Source: an uncultured bacterium (GTDB lineage: Bacteria > Planctomycetota > SZUA-567 > JAKLDR01). Taken from it: a stretch of 64,000 nt of DNA. The stretch lies in contig CALGYR010000006.1 of assembly GCA_937935355.1 (NCBI GenBank), forward strand, positions 5,608 through 69,607, written 5' to 3'. Positions 10,822 to 59,853 of the stretch are shown here, one piece after another. The first letter of the stretch is position 1. Every line of letters starts with the position of its first letter. A model generated the notes under the pieces. The model did not search any database. It had not been told where the DNA came from and was given only the letters and a program-made list of their open reading frames with translations. The translations under genes and the position numbers were made by a program.

Positions 10822-10911
10822 ATGTGCGGAAGCTGCGGCTGCAAGCCCAGGAAGAAGGCGGCCAAAAAGGCCGTCAAGAAGACCGCCAAGAAGGGCAAAA
10901 AGAAGAAGTAA
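10822..10911 (+). CDS. Candidate 29-aa Cys-x2-Cys-x-Cys / poly-Lys peptide (MCGSCGCKPRKKAAKKAVKKTAKKGKKKK)
   Basis: ATG 10822 is 7 nt after AGGAGG (10809-10814). GC3 is ~90% in this frame versus clearly lower in the overlapping 67-aa track ORF 10824..11027. No homolog recalled. Confidence 0.35.
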   Translation: MCGSCGCKPRKKAAKKAVKKTAKKGKKKK

Positions 10912-10993
10912 CAGCCCGACGCGGTCGGCAAACTGCGTTCAGGCGCGGTCTCATCCCCCGGGTGAGGCCGCGCTGTCTTAGGAGCCCAGATTG

Positions 10994-11086
10994 GCCACAG
11001 ATGCACACAGATAAACGCAGATCTTGAGCCTGGGATTGAGGCCGTCTGTCGGCCCCAATCTGTGTGCATCTGTGTTCATCTGTGGC
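10994..11086. repeat. CACAGATG decamer-repeat locus 1 (inverted pair of 10-bp-phased direct repeats) abutting the LarA-like RBS
   Basis: 10994-11023 GCCACAGATGCACACAGATAAACGCAGATC; 11058-11086 ATCTGTGTGCATCTGTGTTCATCTGTGGC in opposite orientation. Confidence 0.6.
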
Positions 11087-17815: not shown

Positions 17816-18009
17816 CGTTCCCCAGGGTCTTTCAATTTTGCCCAACGGGCCTACAACTTGGGGCCGGCGGTGCTATCGCCGCCGGCCCCAAGTTCCCTCC
17901 AGAGCCGATCCTCGCTCGAGAGCAGGGGACCGAAAGCCAAGTCCTGACAGCAGGACTTGGCTTTCAGGTAGGCCCGTTGGGCAGAATTAAGAGACCCTGG
18001 GGCGTTCCC
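17816..18009. mobile_element. MITE-like structured element: 39/42-bp terminal inverted repeats enclosing two perfect hairpins
   Basis: Left arm 17816-17854 (CGTTCCCCAGGGTCTTTCAATTTTGCCCAACGGGCCTAC) is the near-exact reverse complement of right arm 17968-18009. Internal palindromes: 17855-17894 (AACTTGGGGCCGGCGG...CCGCCGGCCCCAAGTT) and 17932-17965 (GAAAGCCAAGTCCTG...CAGGACTTGGCTTTC). Confidence 0.5.
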
Positions 18010-50528: not shown

Positions 50529-50613
50529 TGACTATTCCGAAGGCGGCGGAAAGTTCAAGAAGAAAACGGCCGGCGAGGCCGCGTCCTTACCCTCCTTCGT
50601 GTTCGAGCGGGTG

Positions 50614-50790
50614 CTTTCACCACGAAGTCACGAAGACACGAAGAAGTCACCGAGAACGACATGGGATGTCGTGCGCGGCCATGGCCCCGGGAGTCCGGGC
50701 GTTATCGCCGCGGATTTCGAACCATCGCCGTTCTTCGTGTCTTCTTCGTGCCTTGGTGGCTTTGTGGTTCGTATGCCACGAATCGGAGAG
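50614..50790. repeat. Palindromic CACGAAG-repeat element, copy B (~45-bp inverted arms around a ~70-bp spacer containing CGACATgggATGTCG)
   Basis: Left 'CACCACGAAGTCACGAAGACACGAAGAAGTCAC' (50618-50650); right 'TTCTTCGTGTCTTCTTCGTGCCTTGGTGG' (50741-50769) is its reverse complement. Sits in the divergent promoter region between the 48504 gene and the DJ-1 gene. Confidence 0.5.
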
Positions 50791-50877: not shown

Positions 50878-51402
50878 ATGAAGGCTCTGATACTGGCCGC
50901 CGACGGATTCGAGGACAGCGAGTTGCTCGTGCCCATGTACCGCCTGAAGGAGGAGGGCTTCGAGGTGGACGTGGCCACGCCCACCGGGAGCAGGATCACC
51001 GGCAAGCACGGCTACGAGGTGCCGGGCACGGCCGACCTGTCCCAGGTCCGTCCCGACGAGTACGACCTGCTGGTCATCCCCGGCGGGCGCGCCCCGGAGA
51101 CCGTGCGTCTCGAGGAACAGGCCGTGGCCGCGACCCGCGCGATGATCGACAAGAACAAGATCGTCTGCGTCATCTGCCACGGCGCCCAGGTGCTGGTTTC
51201 CGCCGGCGCGGTCAAGGGCCGGAAGCTCACCTGCTGGATGGGCATCCGCGACGACGTCAAGGCCGCCGGCGGAGAGTTCCGCGACGAGGAGGTGGTGGTC
51301 GACCGCAACCTGGTCACCAGCCGCTTCCCCGGGGACCTGCCGGCCTTCTGCCGCGAGATGATGAAGCTGGTCCGGCAGCGGAAGCTTTCTCCCAACCGAT
51401 GA
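50878..51402 (+). CDS. DJ-1/PfpI family protein (intracellular protease/glyoxalase-like)
   Basis: 'MKALILAADGFEDSELLVP...YDLLVIPGG...KIVCVICHGAQVL' with the nucleophile-elbow Cys-His typical of PfpI/DJ-1. Confidence 0.85.
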   Translation: MKALILAADGFEDSELLVPMYRLKEEGFEVDVATPTGSRITGKHGYEVPGTADLSQVRPDEYDLLVIPGGRAPETVRLEEQAVAATRAMIDKNKIVCVICHGAQVLVSAGAVKGRKLTCWMGIRDDVKAAGGEFRDEEVVVDRNLVTSRFPGDLPAFCREMMKLVRQRKLSPNR

Positions 51403-52240: not shown

Positions 52241-54285
52241 TGGGGCTCCAGCCGGGATTCGGGGGTTGGGGACTGGGGGCCAGGGGCAGGCGACGAGGTG
52301 GAGGGCGCGGCCTCTTCCGTTCCCGTTCCCCGCCCCTCGTCCCCCGCCCCCGGCATCACGGGCAGCAACTCCCGGAAGGCCGACGAGCCCCACACCGGGG
52401 CCGGCGGCATGGACACGGGATCCCGGCTCGGCGCGGCCACGACCGGCGAGGGCAGTTCGTCCCAGCCCTCGGGCTTGCGTCCGATGGGAATCCAGAGGAT
52501 GCGCACGCGCCTGGCCTGCGCGCGCCGCTCGTAGCCGAAGAGGCCGCCGAGGATGCGGAAGCGCCTGGCGCTCTCCCCCGCGGTCTGGCGGGTCTCCCCG
52601 GGCGGAGGGGCGGCCGCCGGGCCGCCCGTCGAGCCGCGCCGCGAGTAGTCGAATAGCGGGAAGAAGCGCACGTTCCTGCCCTCCGGCGTGCGCACGTGCT
52701 TGAAGAGGTTGAAGAGCGCGTGGTCGCGCAGCGTGCCGTCGGCGAAGCACTCGTGGCGGTAGAGCGTGAAGAATGGGCCGTAGACCCGGTCGAAGGCCAG
52801 CCGGTTGCGGAACCACCAGGGCTCCAGGGTCGTGAAGAACCTCTCGCCGCTCGGCCCGCGGTCATAGCGGAAGAGCGGCCAGAAGAGCGCGTTCACGTCG
52901 CTCCTCATGTCCCCGGGGTCGATCGGGCGTTCGGCGCGGCCGGGCGGCTCCGGATAGGCGCCGGGTTCCCGGATGGCCGCGAGCCTCCGGCGCTCGGGGG
53001 GCAGCGGCGGCAGGACCCGCACCCGCCGCCCGTCGAGCGTCTTCTCCACCCACTCCCGGCGCACGTAGCGGAAAACGAACGCCGAGGTCACCGTGGTCAC
53101 GCGCATGGGCGGCTCGTCGCCCGTCTCCCGGATGTAGAACGGCCAGAGCACCTGGCGACTCTCCCCGTAGGCGCCCACCCGGTGGCCGTAGAACGGGAAG
53201 ATCTTGAAGCCGTGGACGCTCTCTCCCGTGATCCAGGATACGAAGGGCCATGGCGCGTGCCACTCGACGAACTCGTTGTTCTTGTGCCAGGCGTGCTTGC
53301 GGCCGAAGAGCGGCCAGAGCACGCTGTAGTAACTGATCTGGTCGCCACGGTAGCTCATCCAGAACGGGAAGAAGACCCAGGTCTCGGAGGGGTGCGGCGT
53401 GTCCAGGGCCAGCTGCCAGTGGTGGAAGAAGGGCCAGAGCGCGAAGACCCGGCGGTAGCGCCCGTCGCGCGCGTCGATCCCGTAGAGCGGCCAGACCCGC
53501 CAGCCGCGAACGTCGGGTCCGCGCCACACGCCGAAGACCGGCCAGAGCACGTTCCACGAATGGTAGAACTCGCTCTGGTAGTCCACCCATAGCGGGAAGG
53601 CCGCGAAGCGGATCCACCTGGTCCCGAGCTTGCCCTTGAGCAGTCCGGCGACCGGGAAGACCGCGAAGTAACTCCCGCGGGCGGTGTCGGAGCCGCCCCA
53701 CAGCACGGGCATGACCGCCCAGTCGGTCTTCGCGGCCGGCTCTCCGCCGGAGCGGTCGACGCGCTTGTCCCACCAGACGATCGGGAAGACGTGCAGGCGG
53801 TTCGACTCGCCGTTGCGCGTGGCCCACACGATGGGCCAGAGCGCGCGGAAGTCCCAGCGGATCGAGCCCGGGCCCTCGTCCTCGAGATAGCCGAGCGGTC
53901 GGACGATGGTCACGCGGTTGCCCGGCTGCGACCACCCCGTGGCCAGGGGCAGCAGCGCCCCCCAGTCGAGCCGGCCGGCGGGCGTCTCCTGCCAGAAGAA
54001 GAACGGCCCGGATCCCTCGCTGAGCCCCCGGGCAGCCGCGGCCTGTGCCGCCTCTTCGGCCGGTGGCGCCGGGCGGAGGGCCGCGGCCCGGAGCGGCTCG
54101 TTGCGCTCCGGAACCTTCGGCCGGCCGCATCCCGCAACGGACGCCAGCAGCAAGCCACAGATGCACACAGATGCACACAGATGCCGAATACCGCCTGGAA
54201 CGACCGGAGACCGGCTCCGCCTGCTCCGGCCATCTTCGCAAATCCGGAACCCGGAACCCGGAACCCGGAACATCCCGTTATTCAT
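52237..54285 (-). CDS. Lipoprotein with ~20 short aromatic 'WP(L/F/I)(F/Y/W)' repeats (682 aa), translationally coupled to the MlaF-like ATPase
   Basis: ATG 54285 overlaps the ATPase stop (ATGAATAA). Lipobox 'LLLASVAGC'. Repeats 'FPIVWW', 'MPVLWG', 'WPVFGVW', 'WPLYG', 'WPFFHHW', 'FPFWMSY', 'WPLFGRK', 'WPFVSW', 'FPFYGH', 'WPFYIRE', 'FWPLFRYD'. The 5' end contains (CCGGAAC)x4 and CACAGATGCA x3 repeats. Confidence 0.6.
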   Translation of the reverse strand: MNNGMFRVPGSGFRICEDGRSRRSRSPVVPGGIRHLCASVCICGLLLASVAGCGRPKVPERNEPLRAAALRPAPPAEEAAQAAAARGLSEGSGPFFFWQETPAGRLDWGALLPLATGWSQPGNRVTIVRPLGYLEDEGPGSIRWDFRALWPIVWATRNGESNRLHVFPIVWWDKRVDRSGGEPAAKTDWAVMPVLWGGSDTARGSYFAVFPVAGLLKGKLGTRWIRFAAFPLWVDYQSEFYHSWNVLWPVFGVWRGPDVRGWRVWPLYGIDARDGRYRRVFALWPFFHHWQLALDTPHPSETWVFFPFWMSYRGDQISYYSVLWPLFGRKHAWHKNNEFVEWHAPWPFVSWITGESVHGFKIFPFYGHRVGAYGESRQVLWPFYIRETGDEPPMRVTTVTSAFVFRYVRREWVEKTLDGRRVRVLPPLPPERRRLAAIREPGAYPEPPGRAERPIDPGDMRSDVNALFWPLFRYDRGPSGERFFTTLEPWWFRNRLAFDRVYGPFFTLYRHECFADGTLRDHALFNLFKHVRTPEGRNVRFFPLFDYSRRGSTGGPAAAPPPGETRQTAGESARRFRILGGLFGYERRAQARRVRILWIPIGRKPEGWDELPSPVVAAPSRDPVSMPPAPVWGSSAFRELLPVMPGAGDEGRGTGTEEAAPSTSSPAPGPQSPTPESRLEPQ
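54154..54185. repeat. CACAGATG decamer-repeat locus 3 (GCCACAGATGCACACAGATGCACACAGATGCC)
   Basis: Three exact 10-bp-phased copies; lies within codons ~34-43 of the lipoprotein gene. Confidence 0.6.
54244..54271. repeat. (CCGGAAC)x4 heptanucleotide tandem repeat inside the 5' end of the lipoprotein CDS
   Basis: ccggaac|ccggaac|ccggaac|ccggaac exact; encodes 'FRVPGSGFR' (codons 6-14 on the minus strand). Confidence 0.7.
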
Positions 54286-56158: not shown

Positions 56159-57010
56159 CTAGCGGACCGCCCTGGCGCCGGCCGCGAGCCGTTGCCGGAC
56201 CCCGGCGCTCTCGAACACCGCCAATACCGGGAGGTGGTCGGAGGCCCCGGCCTTCACGACTGCCGCGCGGCAGCAGAAAAGTTCCGGCGAATAGAGGACG
56301 TGGTCGAGGCGGTCCTCGAAGGTCCAGAAGCGCGTGGGCCAGCGCCAGGTGTCGCTCTTGGGATCGAACTCCCTGAGCGCGTCGGTGAAGCCCCGCCCGA
56401 CCAGCCATTCCACGGCCGAACCGCCGTCGCTCTCGTTGAAGTCGCCGAGGACAAGCGTTGGCTTGCCCGGCTCGAGCAGCCCGTTGAGGAACTTGATCTC
56501 CTCGAGTCGCCGGCCGGACGCGGCGAAGTACGCGCCGATGCTCACGCCGCCCGTGTCGCTCAACGAGGGCCTCAGGTGGACGGAGAGCACCTGGATCTCG
56601 CCGGCCGGGGTTCCGACGGCGAGCACCCAACCGAAGAACCAGCCGGCCGGCGGAGTGGCCCGGGCCACCTCCCTGACCGGCCAGCGCGAGAAGACGGCCA
56701 TGCCGCCGGCGCCGCGCCCATGCCGGAAGAGCGCGTGCGGATAGCGCGCCGCCAGGAGCGGCCGGAGATATCCCTCCCACGCCGGGGTGGTCTCCTGCAG
56801 GCAGATCACGTCCGCTCCGGATTCGAGGATCGCCCGGGCGGACAGGTCGGCGCGATAGCCACCCCAGTTGATGTTGAAGGTCATGGCCGTGAAGCTCGGC
56901 CCGACCGGCGCGACCGGCTCCCGCGGTCGGGTGCAGGAGGAGCAAAGCACCGCCGCAACCAGGGCCAAGCCGCCGGGAACCAGCCTGCGCATAGGCAGTC
57001 TCATGTCCAA
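56159..57010 (-). CDS. Endonuclease/exonuclease/phosphatase (EEP) family lipoprotein
   Basis: 'MTFNINWGGYRADLSARAILESGADVICLQET...QVLSVHL...LVLGDFNESD...SDHLPVLAVF' EEP catalytic motifs. Lipobox 'AAVLCSSC'. Confidence 0.8.
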   Translation of the reverse strand: MDMRLPMRRLVPGGLALVAAVLCSSCTRPREPVAPVGPSFTAMTFNINWGGYRADLSARAILESGADVICLQETTPAWEGYLRPLLAARYPHALFRHGRGAGGMAVFSRWPVREVARATPPAGWFFGWVLAVGTPAGEIQVLSVHLRPSLSDTGGVSIGAYFAASGRRLEEIKFLNGLLEPGKPTLVLGDFNESDGGSAVEWLVGRGFTDALREFDPKSDTWRWPTRFWTFEDRLDHVLYSPELFCCRAAVVKAGASDHLPVLAVFESAGVRQRLAAGARAVR

Positions 57011-57070
57011 TCGCCTCCGAAGCCGGGGGGATTATAGCCGCGCCGGCCGGGGCGCGAGGGGAAAACGGGA

Positions 57071-57164
57071 GGACGCGGGGACATGGGGACACGGTGACGC
57101 GGTGACACGGTGACACGGTGACACGGGGACGCGGTGACACGGGGACAGGGGGACGCGGAGACAG
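57071..57164. repeat. Tandem array of ~11 octamers GG(G/T)GAC(A/G)N
   Basis: ggggacat|ggggacac|ggtgacgc|ggtgacac|ggtgacac|ggtgacac|ggggacgc|ggtgacac|ggggacag|ggggacgc|ggagacag; the 8-bp period is incompatible with coding. Confidence 0.7.
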
Positions 57165-57398
57165 AAGAAAATACGAAATATCGTCGCGTGGTGGCGACTC
57201 CGCGCCAGCCCTCTTCTTTCCTCCCGGAAGAAGACACAGCCAAGAAGAGCCAACTGATGTACCAGCCACTCGGGAAATGAAAACCATCACGGCAGTCCCC
57301 TCACGGGGACTCATGATACGAGGGAGACAAGGGGACGGTGACAAGGAGATGCGGAGGATACCGGAAACAGGGACTCTGCCGGAAGGCTCTTGCCTCCT

Positions 57399-57550
57399 GT
57401 CCCCGCGTCTCCGCGTCTCCGCGTCCCCGCGTCCCCGCGTCCCCGTGTCCCCATGCCCCCTTGTCCCCTTGTCCCCGTGTCCCCGTGTCACCATGTCCCC
57501 GTGTCACCATGTCCCCGCGTCCCCCCGTCGCCGCGTAACCGCGTCATCCC
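57399..57550. repeat. Tandem array of ~19 octamers GTCCCCGY, the reverse complement of the 57071 array
   Basis: gtccccgc|gtctccgc|gtctccgc|gtccccgc|gtccccgc|gtccccgt|gtccccat|gccccctt|gtcccctt|gtccccgt|gtccccgt|gtcaccat|gtccccgt|gtcaccat|gtccccgc... The two arrays flank a 230-bp lower-GC segment containing the unit palindrome GTCCCCTCACGGGGAC (57297-57312). Confidence 0.7.
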
Positions 57551-57615
57551 GTAGAGACCGGCCGTCCTTGAACGCCTGGCCGGCGCGGCTATCCTCTCCG
57601 GCGAAGGAGACTGCC

Positions 57616-58602
57616 ATGATCCGCCTGGCGATAGTCGGCTGCGGCGTCCACTCGGAGTTCTGCCACGCCGTCCCTCTGGCCCGGTACGTTCGCGAGCATC
57701 CGGGCGAGGTCGAGCTGGCCGCAGCCTGCGACCTGGACCCGGCCAAGGCCGCCGAGTTTCAGATCAAGTACGGCTTCGCCCGCGCCTACTCCGAGATGCG
57801 TGCGATGCTCGCCGCCGAGAAGCCCGACGGCGTCGTCTGCGTGGTGCCGGTCGGGCTCATCTCCCGGGTCAACGCCGAGCTGCTCCGCGCCGGGGTGCCC
57901 TGCACGGTCGAGAAGCCGCCGGGCGCCACCCGAGAGCAGGTGCGAGAGCTCGCGCGCCTGGCTCGCGAGACGGGCACTCCGCACATGGTCTCGGTCAACC
58001 GGCGCTTCACCCCGCTCCTGGTCCGCGCGCTCGAATGGGCGCGCGCCCAGGGGCCGCTCCACTACGTGCGGGCCACCATGGTCCGCCACGCCCGGAGCGA
58101 GCCCGGTTTCATCTGGAGCACGGCCATCCACGGCGCCGATGCCCTGCGCTACATCGCCGGCGAGATGGAGGGATTCGGCCTGAGCGTCAGCGACACACCG
58201 GGGCTCTCTGCCAGGTGGTACGACGTCTCGCTGACCTTCGCCGGCGGCTGCCGCGGGCGGCTCGAGGTGCTGGTCACCGCGGGGATGGCCGAGGAGAGCT
58301 ACGACCTCTTCGGCGAGGGCTTTCGCGCGCGCCTGGCCGGCCCCATCCGCCAGGGCATGTTCCAGCCGGGGACCCGCCTGGAGTGCTGGCGCGACAACCG
58401 GCTGGAGGTCTCGGAGGAGGCCCCGGCCGACGCGCCGGTCGACGTGGTCGGCGGCCCCTACGGAGAGGTCGAGGAGTTCGTCTCCGCCCTGCGCGAGGGC
58501 CGCAGCCCGCGGCCCACGCTGGATGACGTCCTGCCTTCGGCCGAGCTGTGCTTCAGCCTGGCCGAGGCGGCTGGAGTCACGCCGGGAACCGGAGAAGACT
58601 GA
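57616..58602 (+). CDS. Gfo/Idh/MocA family oxidoreductase
   Basis: 'MIRLAIVGCGVHSEFCHAVPLARYV...GFARAYSEMRAMLAAEKPDGVVCVVP...VEKPPGATREQVREL' Rossmann NAD(P)-binding N-terminus and the conserved EKP motif. ATG 57616 after GAAGGAGA. The track's 166-aa extension through the octamer array is rejected. Confidence 0.85.
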   Translation: MIRLAIVGCGVHSEFCHAVPLARYVREHPGEVELAAACDLDPAKAAEFQIKYGFARAYSEMRAMLAAEKPDGVVCVVPVGLISRVNAELLRAGVPCTVEKPPGATREQVRELARLARETGTPHMVSVNRRFTPLLVRALEWARAQGPLHYVRATMVRHARSEPGFIWSTAIHGADALRYIAGEMEGFGLSVSDTPGLSARWYDVSLTFAGGCRGRLEVLVTAGMAEESYDLFGEGFRARLAGPIRQGMFQPGTRLECWRDNRLEVSEEAPADAPVDVVGGPYGEVEEFVSALREGRSPRPTLDDVLPSAELCFSLAEAAGVTPGTGED

Positions 58603-59440: not shown

Positions 59441-59824
59441 CCTTCTTCAGTGTGCCCCCTGCACGCTGCGCCCGGGGCTAAGCAACGGCGGGGCCAAAGA
59501 CGGGGTGGACGGCTGCCTGCGCTAAGGCGCCCAAATGCGCCACTTGTCAATACGCGGGCATCTTCCCGGGCGGCTCATGTCCTGATGTGGATTCCCACAC
59601 CAGCCGACGTTCGTCGGGGACAACAACGGTTTGGGGGGAAGCTATCAGCCGCGGATGAACGCCGACAAACGCGGACGGGCTCTTCACCGCAGAGGACGCT
59701 GAGGCGCGCAGAGGACGGCCATTGCCTGCATGAGCCGGAGCGCGGCGGAGTACGTTGCGTATTCGAAAGCCCCAGCCGCGAACCGGAGGACGCCTCCGCG
59801 CCCCCTCTGGTGGAATCCTCGTAT

Positions 59825-59853
59825 CCGTGTCCATCTGTGTCCATCTGTGGCTG
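59825..59853. repeat. CACAGATG decamer-repeat locus 4 (CCGTGTCCATCTGTGTCCATCTGTGGCTG) ~130 nt upstream of tyrS
   Basis: Reverse complement GCCACAGATGGACACAGATGGACAC; same motif family. Confidence 0.55.

Follow-up and report, generated by a model that had tools for sequence, protein, structure and literature searches.

Known repeats of this kind include the heptamers GGGAATC in Xanthomonas and GGGGA(C/T)T in Nostoc PCC 7120 (Rehm et al. 2015, PLoS One, PMC4692102). These repeats form G-quadruplexes (G4) in vitro, with the C strand forming an i-motif; they are intergenic, lie nearer the 5' neighbouring open reading frame (ORF) and, when upstream of an ORF, stand on its noncoding strand. They are under-represented between divergent ORFs (7–9%), differ in array length between Xcc and Xac, and in Xanthomonas form 70–75 convergent inverted pairs. 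Transcription was seen for most of them, with transcripts starting or stopping inside the repeats more often than in controls; neither a regulatory role nor an association with mobile elements was identified (PMC4692102). That study mentions neither octamers nor other phyla, and cites Calothrix heptamers. Hairpins of cyanobacterial short tandemly repeated repetitive (STRR) sequences in the hupS-hupL and hoxW regions have been proposed to stabilise transcripts (PMC2670836). Here we analyse a window of 64,000 nt (contig CALGYR010000006.1, positions 5,608 to 69,607, of assembly GCA_937935355.1, from an uncultured Planctomycetota bacterium) in which a block at about 57049–57558 carries two inverted arrays of an octamer with a GGGGAC core, set between an EEP (Exo_endo_phos) gene and a GFO/IDH/MocA oxidoreductase gene. 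The repeat STRR1 reportedly reads CCCCAGT (Mazel et al., 1990), and we take the Nostoc heptamer to be STRR1 on the other strand.

The analysis establishes the block's identity, noncoding status, variability and position. We read it as a slippage-prone simple-sequence repeat with the capacity to form G4 and i-motif structures, present as an inverted duplicate and possibly tuning the neighbouring promoters through structure, and we give this reading as a whole a probability of roughly 0.55. Its functional step is the conjectural part, and a near-neutral, merely tolerated repeat would be equally compatible with that part.

Structure, context and distribution of the arrays

Both octamer arrays are real and non-random. 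Tandem Repeats Finder, run over the 64-kb window, ranked them as top-scoring with no other array close: the left array has period 8 with 11.6 copies (81% matches, score 102) and also a higher-order period of 24 bp, and the right array has period 8 with 18.4 copies (83% matches, score 133). An inverted-repeat search of the window recovered the two as reverse complements in many registers, with arms of 67–114 nt that are 76–86% complementary and lie 226–346 nt apart. The two-unit pattern GTCCCCNNGTCCCC (at most one mismatch) matched 25 times against 1.28 expected, a count reached in none of 100 shuffles, and 24 of the 25 matches fell within 57069–57532. Within 68.6 kb of the genome, GGGGAC arrays occupy this one locus.

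The core between the arrays measures 235 bp; its GC content is 0.57 overall and 0.55 for the unique portion, lower than in the two arrays (0.71 and 0.74) and in the window as a whole (0.69). Apart from short array-like stretches, BLAST found no homologue of the unique core in the window or in about 160 loci, and none in the spacers of relatives. The left array is 0.48 G and 0.23 C; about half of its units are GGTGAC, and degenerate forms in the arrays include GGTGAC and GGAGAC. The right array is C-rich on the plus strand and G-rich on the noncoding strand of the oxidoreductase gene. An identical 611-bp spacer is present in two public assemblies, the NCBI metagenome-assembled genome (MAG) GCA_036768975.1 and ENA ERZ724101, possibly built from the same reads. 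Coverage is low (NODE cov 7.9), so that the arrays themselves are more secure than their exact unit numbers.

The EEP and oxidoreductase genes are divergent, with the arrays in between (Table 1). Promoters for both genes were predicted from conservation among relatives. A TTGACC/TTGAAC-16/17-TATNNT pattern aligns in the window and in L122, L123, L186, L187, L189 and L190 (L numbers are our handles for compared loci), L192 has TTGCGC-16-TATCCT where the window has the putative oxidoreductase promoter, and the -35 and -10 boxes of this gene recur in seven relatives. A simple sigma-70 consensus scan of the locus found no promoter, and terminator-like sites were at chance level (one found, shuffle mean 0.6). 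The left array lies 44–66 nt from the EEP ATG; the right array lies 57–70 nt from the oxidoreductase ATG and ends about 10–23 nt upstream of the predicted -35 box. Both arrays are thus placed upstream of what we predict to be back-to-back promoters.

Comparison of start sites indicates that the block is not translated. Seventeen oxidoreductase homologues begin with M(I/L/M/V)(R/Q/K)L (MIRLA in the window) at an aligned ATG with its own ribosome-binding site (RBS), and their upstream DNA is otherwise unrelated. A mechanically called ORF, 57118–58602, spans the right array; it is not the gene, because the Pfam Rossmann domain begins at residue 2 from ATG 57616 and the homologues share the ATG and RBS. 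Given these start sites, we reject the idea that the right array codes for a Pro-rich extension at the oxidoreductase N-terminus.

A preliminary description, made from the letters and an ORF list, had recognised two arrays of 8-bp period that are reverse complements, a lower-GC core containing the unit palindrome, and a site between divergent promoters; the repeat searches, the base composition, the gene orientation and the promoter boxes recurring in relatives bear out all three. It had named translation through the right array as the finding that would overturn it, and the 17 homologues speak for the ATG downstream of the array. Its noncoding call therefore stood, whereas its argument from octamer periodicity was incomplete, as three units make 24 nt and could encode an eight-residue repeat. 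The proposal that unit number alters promoter spacing does not hold: the array lies upstream of -35, and a change in its length would leave the -35/-10 spacing as it is and alter only the distance between the promoters. Nor is the pattern unusual for a bacterial intergenic region, as had been supposed. In a scan of one genome per species, with loci seen as 8-kb chunks, at least 119 genomic stretches in many phyla held four perfect GTCCCCNN units, and a 7-bp version had been described (PMC4692102).

The matches listed come mostly from filamentous Cyanobacteria and also from Acidobacteriota, Chloroflexota, Planctomycetota, Verrucomicrobiota, Gemmatimonadota, Bacteroidota and a few actinomycetes; no other contig of the MAG GCA_036768975.1 is among them. 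Viral contigs gave 20 matches in 2.9 million, a weak phage association. Among the matches listed, arrays are mostly solitary, and the 11 paired loci all have the inverted partner 3' of the G-rich arm. By a crude ORF caller that is noisy in high-GC DNA, with figures that are indicative only and agree with published ones, 32 of the 42 solitary arrays listed with a 5' gene within 150 nt come after it on its own strand (p = 0.001), and 17 start at most 9 nt past its stop codon. The stop codon falls inside the first repeat unit (TAG-GGGAC..., TGA-AGGGGAC...) in several to many of the loci L003–L121. Every unit in L111 is TAGGGGAC, and since 8 = 9 - 1, such arrays put stops in all three frames. A literature search on the unit sequences and on STRRs returned nothing directly on GGGGAC octamer arrays. 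The octamer arrays are an 8-bp sibling of the known heptamer class, found in Planctomycetota and other phyla.

One further Planctomycetota MAG (L016) holds two GTCCCCGC arrays 2 kb apart, at 363–420 and 2337–2400, and a shared stretch of ~30 nt, GTCGTTSGGTTGCGGGCGCAG..., follows both. Unique sequence next to an array therefore moves along with it in some genomes.

Table 1 Features of the octamer block and its flanks (window coordinates)
Feature	Position	Strand	Basis or remark
EEP (Exo_endo_phos) gene, left flank	56159–57004	-	ATG 57004; Pfam PF03372, E = 8e-30; identical gene call in L001/L002
EEP RBS, GGAGG (plus strand CCTCC)	57014–57018	-	kept at the same place in L122/L182 and L192
EEP predicted -10 box, TATAAT (plus strand ATTATA)	57031–57036	-	kept in L122/L182 and L192
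Outer inverted repeat, exact 15 nt, left copy, ATAGCCGCGCCGGCC	57034–57048	.	extended arm 57027–57051; inverted-repeat search
Left array, degenerate outer edge, GGGGCGCGAGGGGAAAACGGGAGG	57049–57070	+	inside plus-strand G4 motif 57049–57088
Left array, 11.6 units GGGGACRY/GGTGACRY	57071–57163	+	G-rich on EEP noncoding strand; Tandem Repeats Finder, unit list
Core, unique lower-GC part (131 bp)	57164–57294	.	GC 0.55
Perfect mini-palindrome GTCCCCTCACGGGGAC (GTCCCC-TCAC-GGGGAC)	57295–57310	.	7-bp stem 57294–57300 / 57305–57311
About five degenerate G-type units, GGGAGACA AGGGGACG GTGACAAG GAGATGCG GAGG	57321–57360	+	pairing with right-array start
Right array, 18.4 units GTCCCCGY	57399–57545, decaying to 57558	+	Tandem Repeats Finder, unit list
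Canonical G4 motif	57425–57484	-	8 consecutive G4–5 runs, 3–4-nt loops; plus-strand C runs i-motif-capable; regex scan
Oxidoreductase predicted promoter	57568–57595	+	-35 TTGAAC 57568–57573, 16-nt spacer, -10 TATCCT 57590–57595
Outer inverted repeat, 15 nt, right copy, GGCCGGCGCGGCTAT	57578–57592	.	inside promoter spacer and -10 box
Oxidoreductase RBS, GAAGGAGA	57603–57610	+	sequence upstream of ATG 57616
GFO/IDH/MocA oxidoreductase gene	57616–58602	+	Pfam PF01408 over residues 2–125; exact protein called in two assemblies

Turnover among relatives and origin of the two arms

We compared the spacer with that of relatives at about 75–88% protein identity. The closest syntenic relative, the P0004 lineage (NCBI: Planctomycetota bacterium; 16 contigs), has an oxidoreductase 78.6% identical to that of the window and the same synteny of EEP, oxidoreductase and a 244-aa protein; its spacer is 135 bp long and lacks an array in each of four places seen, with identical sequence in three. 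L192 has an EEP protein 78% identical and an oxidoreductase N-terminus that differs from the P0006 protein at 3 of 76 residues, and its spacer holds 4–5 GTCCCC-type units that end GCGTCATCGCCC directly before -35, where the 19-unit right array of the window ends GCGTCATCCC. The L186 contig, which encodes P0006 (oxidoreductase 79.7% identical), begins inside at least five GTCCCCGC units directly upstream of the same promoter; like that of L189, it breaks inside such an array. At least three lineages thus carry the right array at one and the same promoter-proximal site, and unit numbers among relatives are 0, 4–5, at least 5 and 19. By protein identity P0006 is nearer to P0004 than to the window, and the array pattern therefore needs either loss in P0004 or repeated growth. 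Judged by these alignments, a shared site with differing length and content behaves as a hypervariable simple-sequence repeat and not as a conserved operator.

The spacer varies in other ways. That of L192 (229–532, reverse complement) carries a second octamer pair, (TGTGGGTG)4 ... (CACCCACA)6, beside its GTCCCC-type units, and the ancestral segment AACCGGTTTGTAAC, retained by L122 and L192 and found in P0004 too, is missing from the window. The EEP–oxidoreductase spacer appears to be a turnover hotspot for short-repeat families.

The array units evolve by local duplication. Adjacent units of the right array resemble one another more than they do when their order is shuffled (p = 0.0001), and identical units as well as a 16-bp doublet stand side by side; both arrays have decayed toward their outer edges. 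Because neighbouring units are alike, doublets are adjacent and the outer edges are decayed, we favour slipped-strand duplication, and slipped-strand mispairing would both expand and contract the arrays.

The left array probably has a second step in its history. Outside the arrays, the two flanks share an exact 15-nt inverted match (Table 1), which arose in none of 2,000 shuffles of the two 60-nt flanks. Read in reverse, the stretch 57013–57128 matches the array next to the promoter, and the promoter itself, in L186, L192, L122 and L189; the ancestral AACCGGTTTGTAAC segment has been lost. The axis of symmetry falls at ~57313 by the outer repeat and at ~57304 by the array arms, beside the mini-palindrome. 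We infer, with good support from these alignments, that the left array is an inverted duplicate of the right array together with the promoter spacer. In the lineage of the window, the right array and the oxidoreductase promoter spacer would have been copied to the EEP side and joined at the ATA that the EEP -10 box shares with the oxidoreductase -10 box in complement, an event that would yield the two inverted arrays.

Other short repeats occur in these relatives and elsewhere in the window. The P0006 gene (380 aa) of L186 contains, at 700–860, an in-frame insert of ~165 nt of nested palindromes with the ends GGACCGGGCCTAC ... GTAGGCCCGGTCC, which resembles a palindromic element in a coding region with the frame intact. 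In two relatives (L189 1033–1058; L186 1243–1254 and 1375–1402), arrays of the heptamer GTTCCTG begin at the oxidoreductase TAG stop, and L186 has an inverted CAGGAAC partner ~100 nt downstream, with the pyrimidine-rich arm first in this family. A rule that the purine-rich arm comes first in all repeat families fails on these arrays, which start pyrimidine-rich after stops in both loci.

In the window, a hairpin at 10994–11086 has tandem 10-mer arms, CACAGATGCA / ATCTGTGTGC, around a 35-nt core. The 3' arm, ending ...CATCTGTGGC, stops 17 nt short of ATG 11104 and immediately ahead of the RBS, so that the element must either lie in the 5' untranslated region or carry the promoter. Nearby, a small ORF at 10823–10911 encodes MCGSCGCKPRKKAAKKAVKKTAKKGKKKK, with a Cys-rich N-terminus and a Lys-rich tail, and is followed by a terminator-like hairpin at ~10930–10975. 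At 54148–54271, a run of 2.9 CACAGATGCA units overlaps the called GTG start (54168, minus strand) and signal peptide of a lipoprotein gene, and GTTCCGG x4 (minus strand, 54271–54244) begins 7 nt past the stop codon of an ABC ATPase gene. Degenerate arms of the CACAGATGCA family (GCCGCGGATGAACGCC... / ...ATCCGTGTCCATCTGTGTCCATCTGTGGC) occur at 59646–59852, within the divergent intergenic region that precedes tyrS; at three window loci, the family's arms share the conserved ending CATCTGTGGC. Another divergent region (between a minus-strand gene starting at 50531 and a plus-strand ATG at 50878) holds, at 50619–50768, inverted arrays of the octamer CACGAAGA (three units) and its complement around a 70-nt core, an architecture like that of the octamer block but lacking G runs. 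A 35-nt inverted repeat, 17820–17854 / 17968–18002, is 91% complementary with 113 nt between the arms, carries GGGCCTAC / GTAGGCCC and resembles GTAG-tagged palindromes of the repetitive extragenic palindrome (REP) type.

Possible function and competing explanations

Any effect of the block would run through DNA structure and length. Each array is G-rich on the template strand of the gene it faces and ends a few tens of bases upstream of the predicted promoter. The template-strand G runs and the opposite C runs could fold into G4 and i-motif, folding that negative supercoiling between the divergent promoters should favour, and the outcome would be a modest, unit-number-dependent tuning or coupling of both promoters. 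The right array holds a canonical G4 motif and a weaker plus-strand motif lies at the outer edge of the left array (Table 1); elsewhere in the window, runs of four tracts of at least four G occur only twice, both near 52261–52351. We infer that the block is not a sequence-specific operator, a cruciform or a promoter-spacing switch.

Several observations weigh against this structural reading or parts of it. GGTGAC makes up half of the left-array units and interrupts the G runs; a canonical G4 motif is present in that arm only at the outer edge. G-poor inverted short-repeat pairs (CACGAAGA, CACAGATGCA, GTTCCGG) occur in the same window, and G4 is therefore not the general reason for repeat-armed architectures of this kind. 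The halves of the core are not symmetric and the inverted-duplication model does not cover its 131-bp unique part, which leaves that model incomplete. Persistence of an array at one promoter-proximal site in three lineages could mean a bound factor. The unit count comes from low-coverage short-read assemblies. Finally, the repeats of Rehm et al. are rare between divergent ORFs and had no regulatory role identified (PMC4692102).

Among the alternatives, an action at the RNA level is strong for the class and weak at this locus, where we consider it unlikely. A transcript with the G-rich arm first would fold into a long hairpin or an RNA G4 and stop read-through or protect 3' ends, shielding both genes from antisense and pervasive transcription. 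Folding energies agree with this: a 531-nt single strand reaches -159 kcal/mol (z = -9.4), and the inner hairpin 57315–57440 reaches -69.5 kcal/mol as RNA. So do the published heptamers, which are mostly transcribed and enriched in transcript ends (PMC4692102), and the stabilisation proposed for STRR hairpins (PMC2670836). Here, however, the genes point away from the block and the predicted promoters lie between arrays and genes, so that no sense mRNA would cross it. No U tract follows the arms, the one terminator-like site is at chance level, the arms show no locus-specific co-variation, and the core is unstructured (fold z-scores of -0.38 and -0.11 on the two strands).

Related searches for RNA and other identities were negative. 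Rfam gave no match in the window at gathering thresholds, with only spurious sub-threshold matches to microRNA hairpins, among them those at 57321–57360, and ARAGORN found no tRNA or tmRNA. A structured noncoding RNA in the core was rejected on the fold z-scores near 0 on both strands and the lack of an Rfam match or a core homologue. A CRISPR array was likewise rejected, as the 8-bp units are contiguous and without spacers, where CRISPR has 23–50-bp repeats and unique spacers. Locus-specific pairing or co-evolution of the arms also fell: the left array is complementary to arrays from Blastocatellia, Tepidisphaeraceae and Oscillochloris at 86%, against 84% to its own partner. Foreign arrays are equally complementary, and arm complementarity is therefore a by-product of the common unit and not selected pairing.

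A protein platform is also unlikely, with slightly lower odds in our estimate. A binder would recognise each GGGGAC octamer, polymerise along the arrays and repress or activate both promoters, perhaps in the manner of ParR on iterons or of ribbon-helix-helix proteins on contiguous 7-bp heptads. For the omega repressor, binding is good to heptads in direct or convergent orientation and poor to divergent ones, and the octamer pairs are convergent in 11 of 11 paired loci among the matches listed; the short distance from array end to -35 and the shared site in three lineages fit as well. The preliminary description had proposed a multi-site regulator platform, and comparison with relatives tells against a conserved one: syntenic P0004 keeps the promoter boxes without an array, and other relatives have 4–5 or at least 5 units. 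Across the range of 0 to 19 units, the units are also degenerate (GGTGAC, GGAGAC), and their 8-bp spacing sets successive sites on different faces of the helix. The unit is found in many phyla, mostly right past stop codons, which is not an operator position, and no regulator or partition gene is adjacent.

More speculatively, and at odds lower again, the GGGGAC octamers and the other polar head-to-head families of 7–10 bp in this genome could form a cross-phylum system of transcription punctuation. Arrays would be kept by stop codons, or on the template strand a short way upstream of promoters, because once folded as G4, i-motif or hairpin they start, stop or insulate transcription. If so, the inverted pair here would act as a supercoil-sensing bidirectional insulator or coupler whose strength is set by a fast-mutating unit number.

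We find it quite improbable that the block is a non-autonomous mobile element, of the kind of miniature inverted-repeat transposable elements or REPINs, in which array, core and array with terminal inverted repeats were inserted between the promoters. Its presence here and absence in P0004, the outer inverted repeats, the ~30-nt flank shared by the GTCCCCGC arrays of L016 and the other repeat-armed hairpins with conserved ends in the window would suit such an element. Yet the block has no target-site duplication or flanking direct repeat, no second core copy was found in the window, L001 or the other loci compared, and the outer repeat is resident promoter sequence and not foreign DNA. Graded lengths at one junction in L192 and L186 point to growth in situ and not to a single insertion, and Rehm et al. 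saw no association with mobile elements (PMC4692102).

The long cruciform raised in the preliminary description, in which the 480-bp inverted repeat would be extruded in vivo, is very improbable. It could draw on long arms and a high single-strand folding energy, and by the twin-domain model negative supercoiling is expected between divergent promoters. Extrusion, however, requires arms that match almost perfectly across a spacer of only a few bases, and long perfect palindromes are unstable in bacteria; the arms here are imperfectly complementary, stand at least 226 nt apart, show no co-evolution and match foreign arrays equally well, and only the 16-nt palindrome is perfect. Just as improbable, and already largely refuted, is an assembler-made or mis-sized repeat or a Pro-rich coding extension: coverage of ~8x, the contig breaks of L186 and L189 in arrays and the mechanical ORF would allow it, but two assemblies are identical, the flanks are syntenic with relatives, related arrays stand at the same site in independent metagenomes, and homologues share the ATG and RBS.

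Comparison with known repeat systems

The locus has practical and comparative uses. Arrays of this sort fragment short-read contigs and give rise to long spurious ORFs, and recognising them improves the annotation of high-GC MAGs. Graded lengths among relatives, with a duplicated copy at the neighbouring gene, offer a natural test case for promoter tuning against a tolerated mutational by-product.

The omega heptads of pSM19035 (7 bp) and the ParR iterons of R1 parC, which provide the model for a protein platform, are unspaced 7–11-bp units in direct and convergent arrays near promoters. They number 7–10 units, are well conserved and are carried on plasmids in linkage with the gene for their binding protein; none of these features holds here. 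Phase-variable promoter repeats, as in Haemophilus and Neisseria contingency loci, share slippage-prone units near promoters and variable length. Their units, however, are 1–5 nt, lie between -35 and -10 or in an ORF and switch expression, whereas the arrays here lie upstream of -35 and outside the ORF.

REPs, bacterial interspersed mosaic elements (BIMEs) and REPINs are likewise intergenic and often inverted doublets. They are enriched at 3' ends, rare between divergent genes, and have been proposed as RNA 3' stabilisers, terminators or DNA-topology sites. REPs differ in being single imperfect palindromes of 20–40 bp with a GTAG/CGTC head that are mobilised by REP-associated tyrosine transposases (RAYTs); here the units are tandem octamers with no such head, and no RAYT gene is known near the block.

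Among the cyanobacterial STRRs, STRR1 read on the other strand and rotated becomes GGGGACT; it has the hexamer found here, followed by a single spacer base in place of two, and both kinds of repeat are noncoding and hairpin-capable. STRRs are 7-bp repeats of heterocystous cyanobacteria in many genome copies, whereas the unit here is 8 bp and the nearest named homologue of the flanking gene comes from a Planctomycetota MAG. Pfam searches of ten large neighbouring proteins yielded no families specific to a taxon.

The G4 heptamers of Rehm et al. are the nearest match. The GGGGAC core of the Nostoc unit, tandem intergenic arrangement and variable length at a kept site all recur, as do closeness to the 5' neighbouring ORF and a G-rich noncoding strand upstream of the array's own gene. 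Distances to the ORFs are slightly above the ~50-bp limit used there, and we count them as agreeing. Four or more consecutive G tracts are present, making the locus G4-capable by sequence, and the pair is convergent, with the G-rich arm 5' on both strands. The unit is 8 nt long where the published ones have 7 (GGGNATC or GGGGA(C/T)T), which makes the arrays a length variant and not strict members. They run to 11.6 and 18.4 units against a preferred four, in a Planctomycetota host, between divergent ORFs, around a 235-bp core and with evidence that the left arm is an inverted duplicate. Arrays of the heptamer class thus exist also as octamers, with matching positional rules and convergent pairing; what sets this locus apart are the 8-bp unit, the Planctomycetota host, the long arrays, the disfavoured divergent context and an inverted duplication that can be traced.

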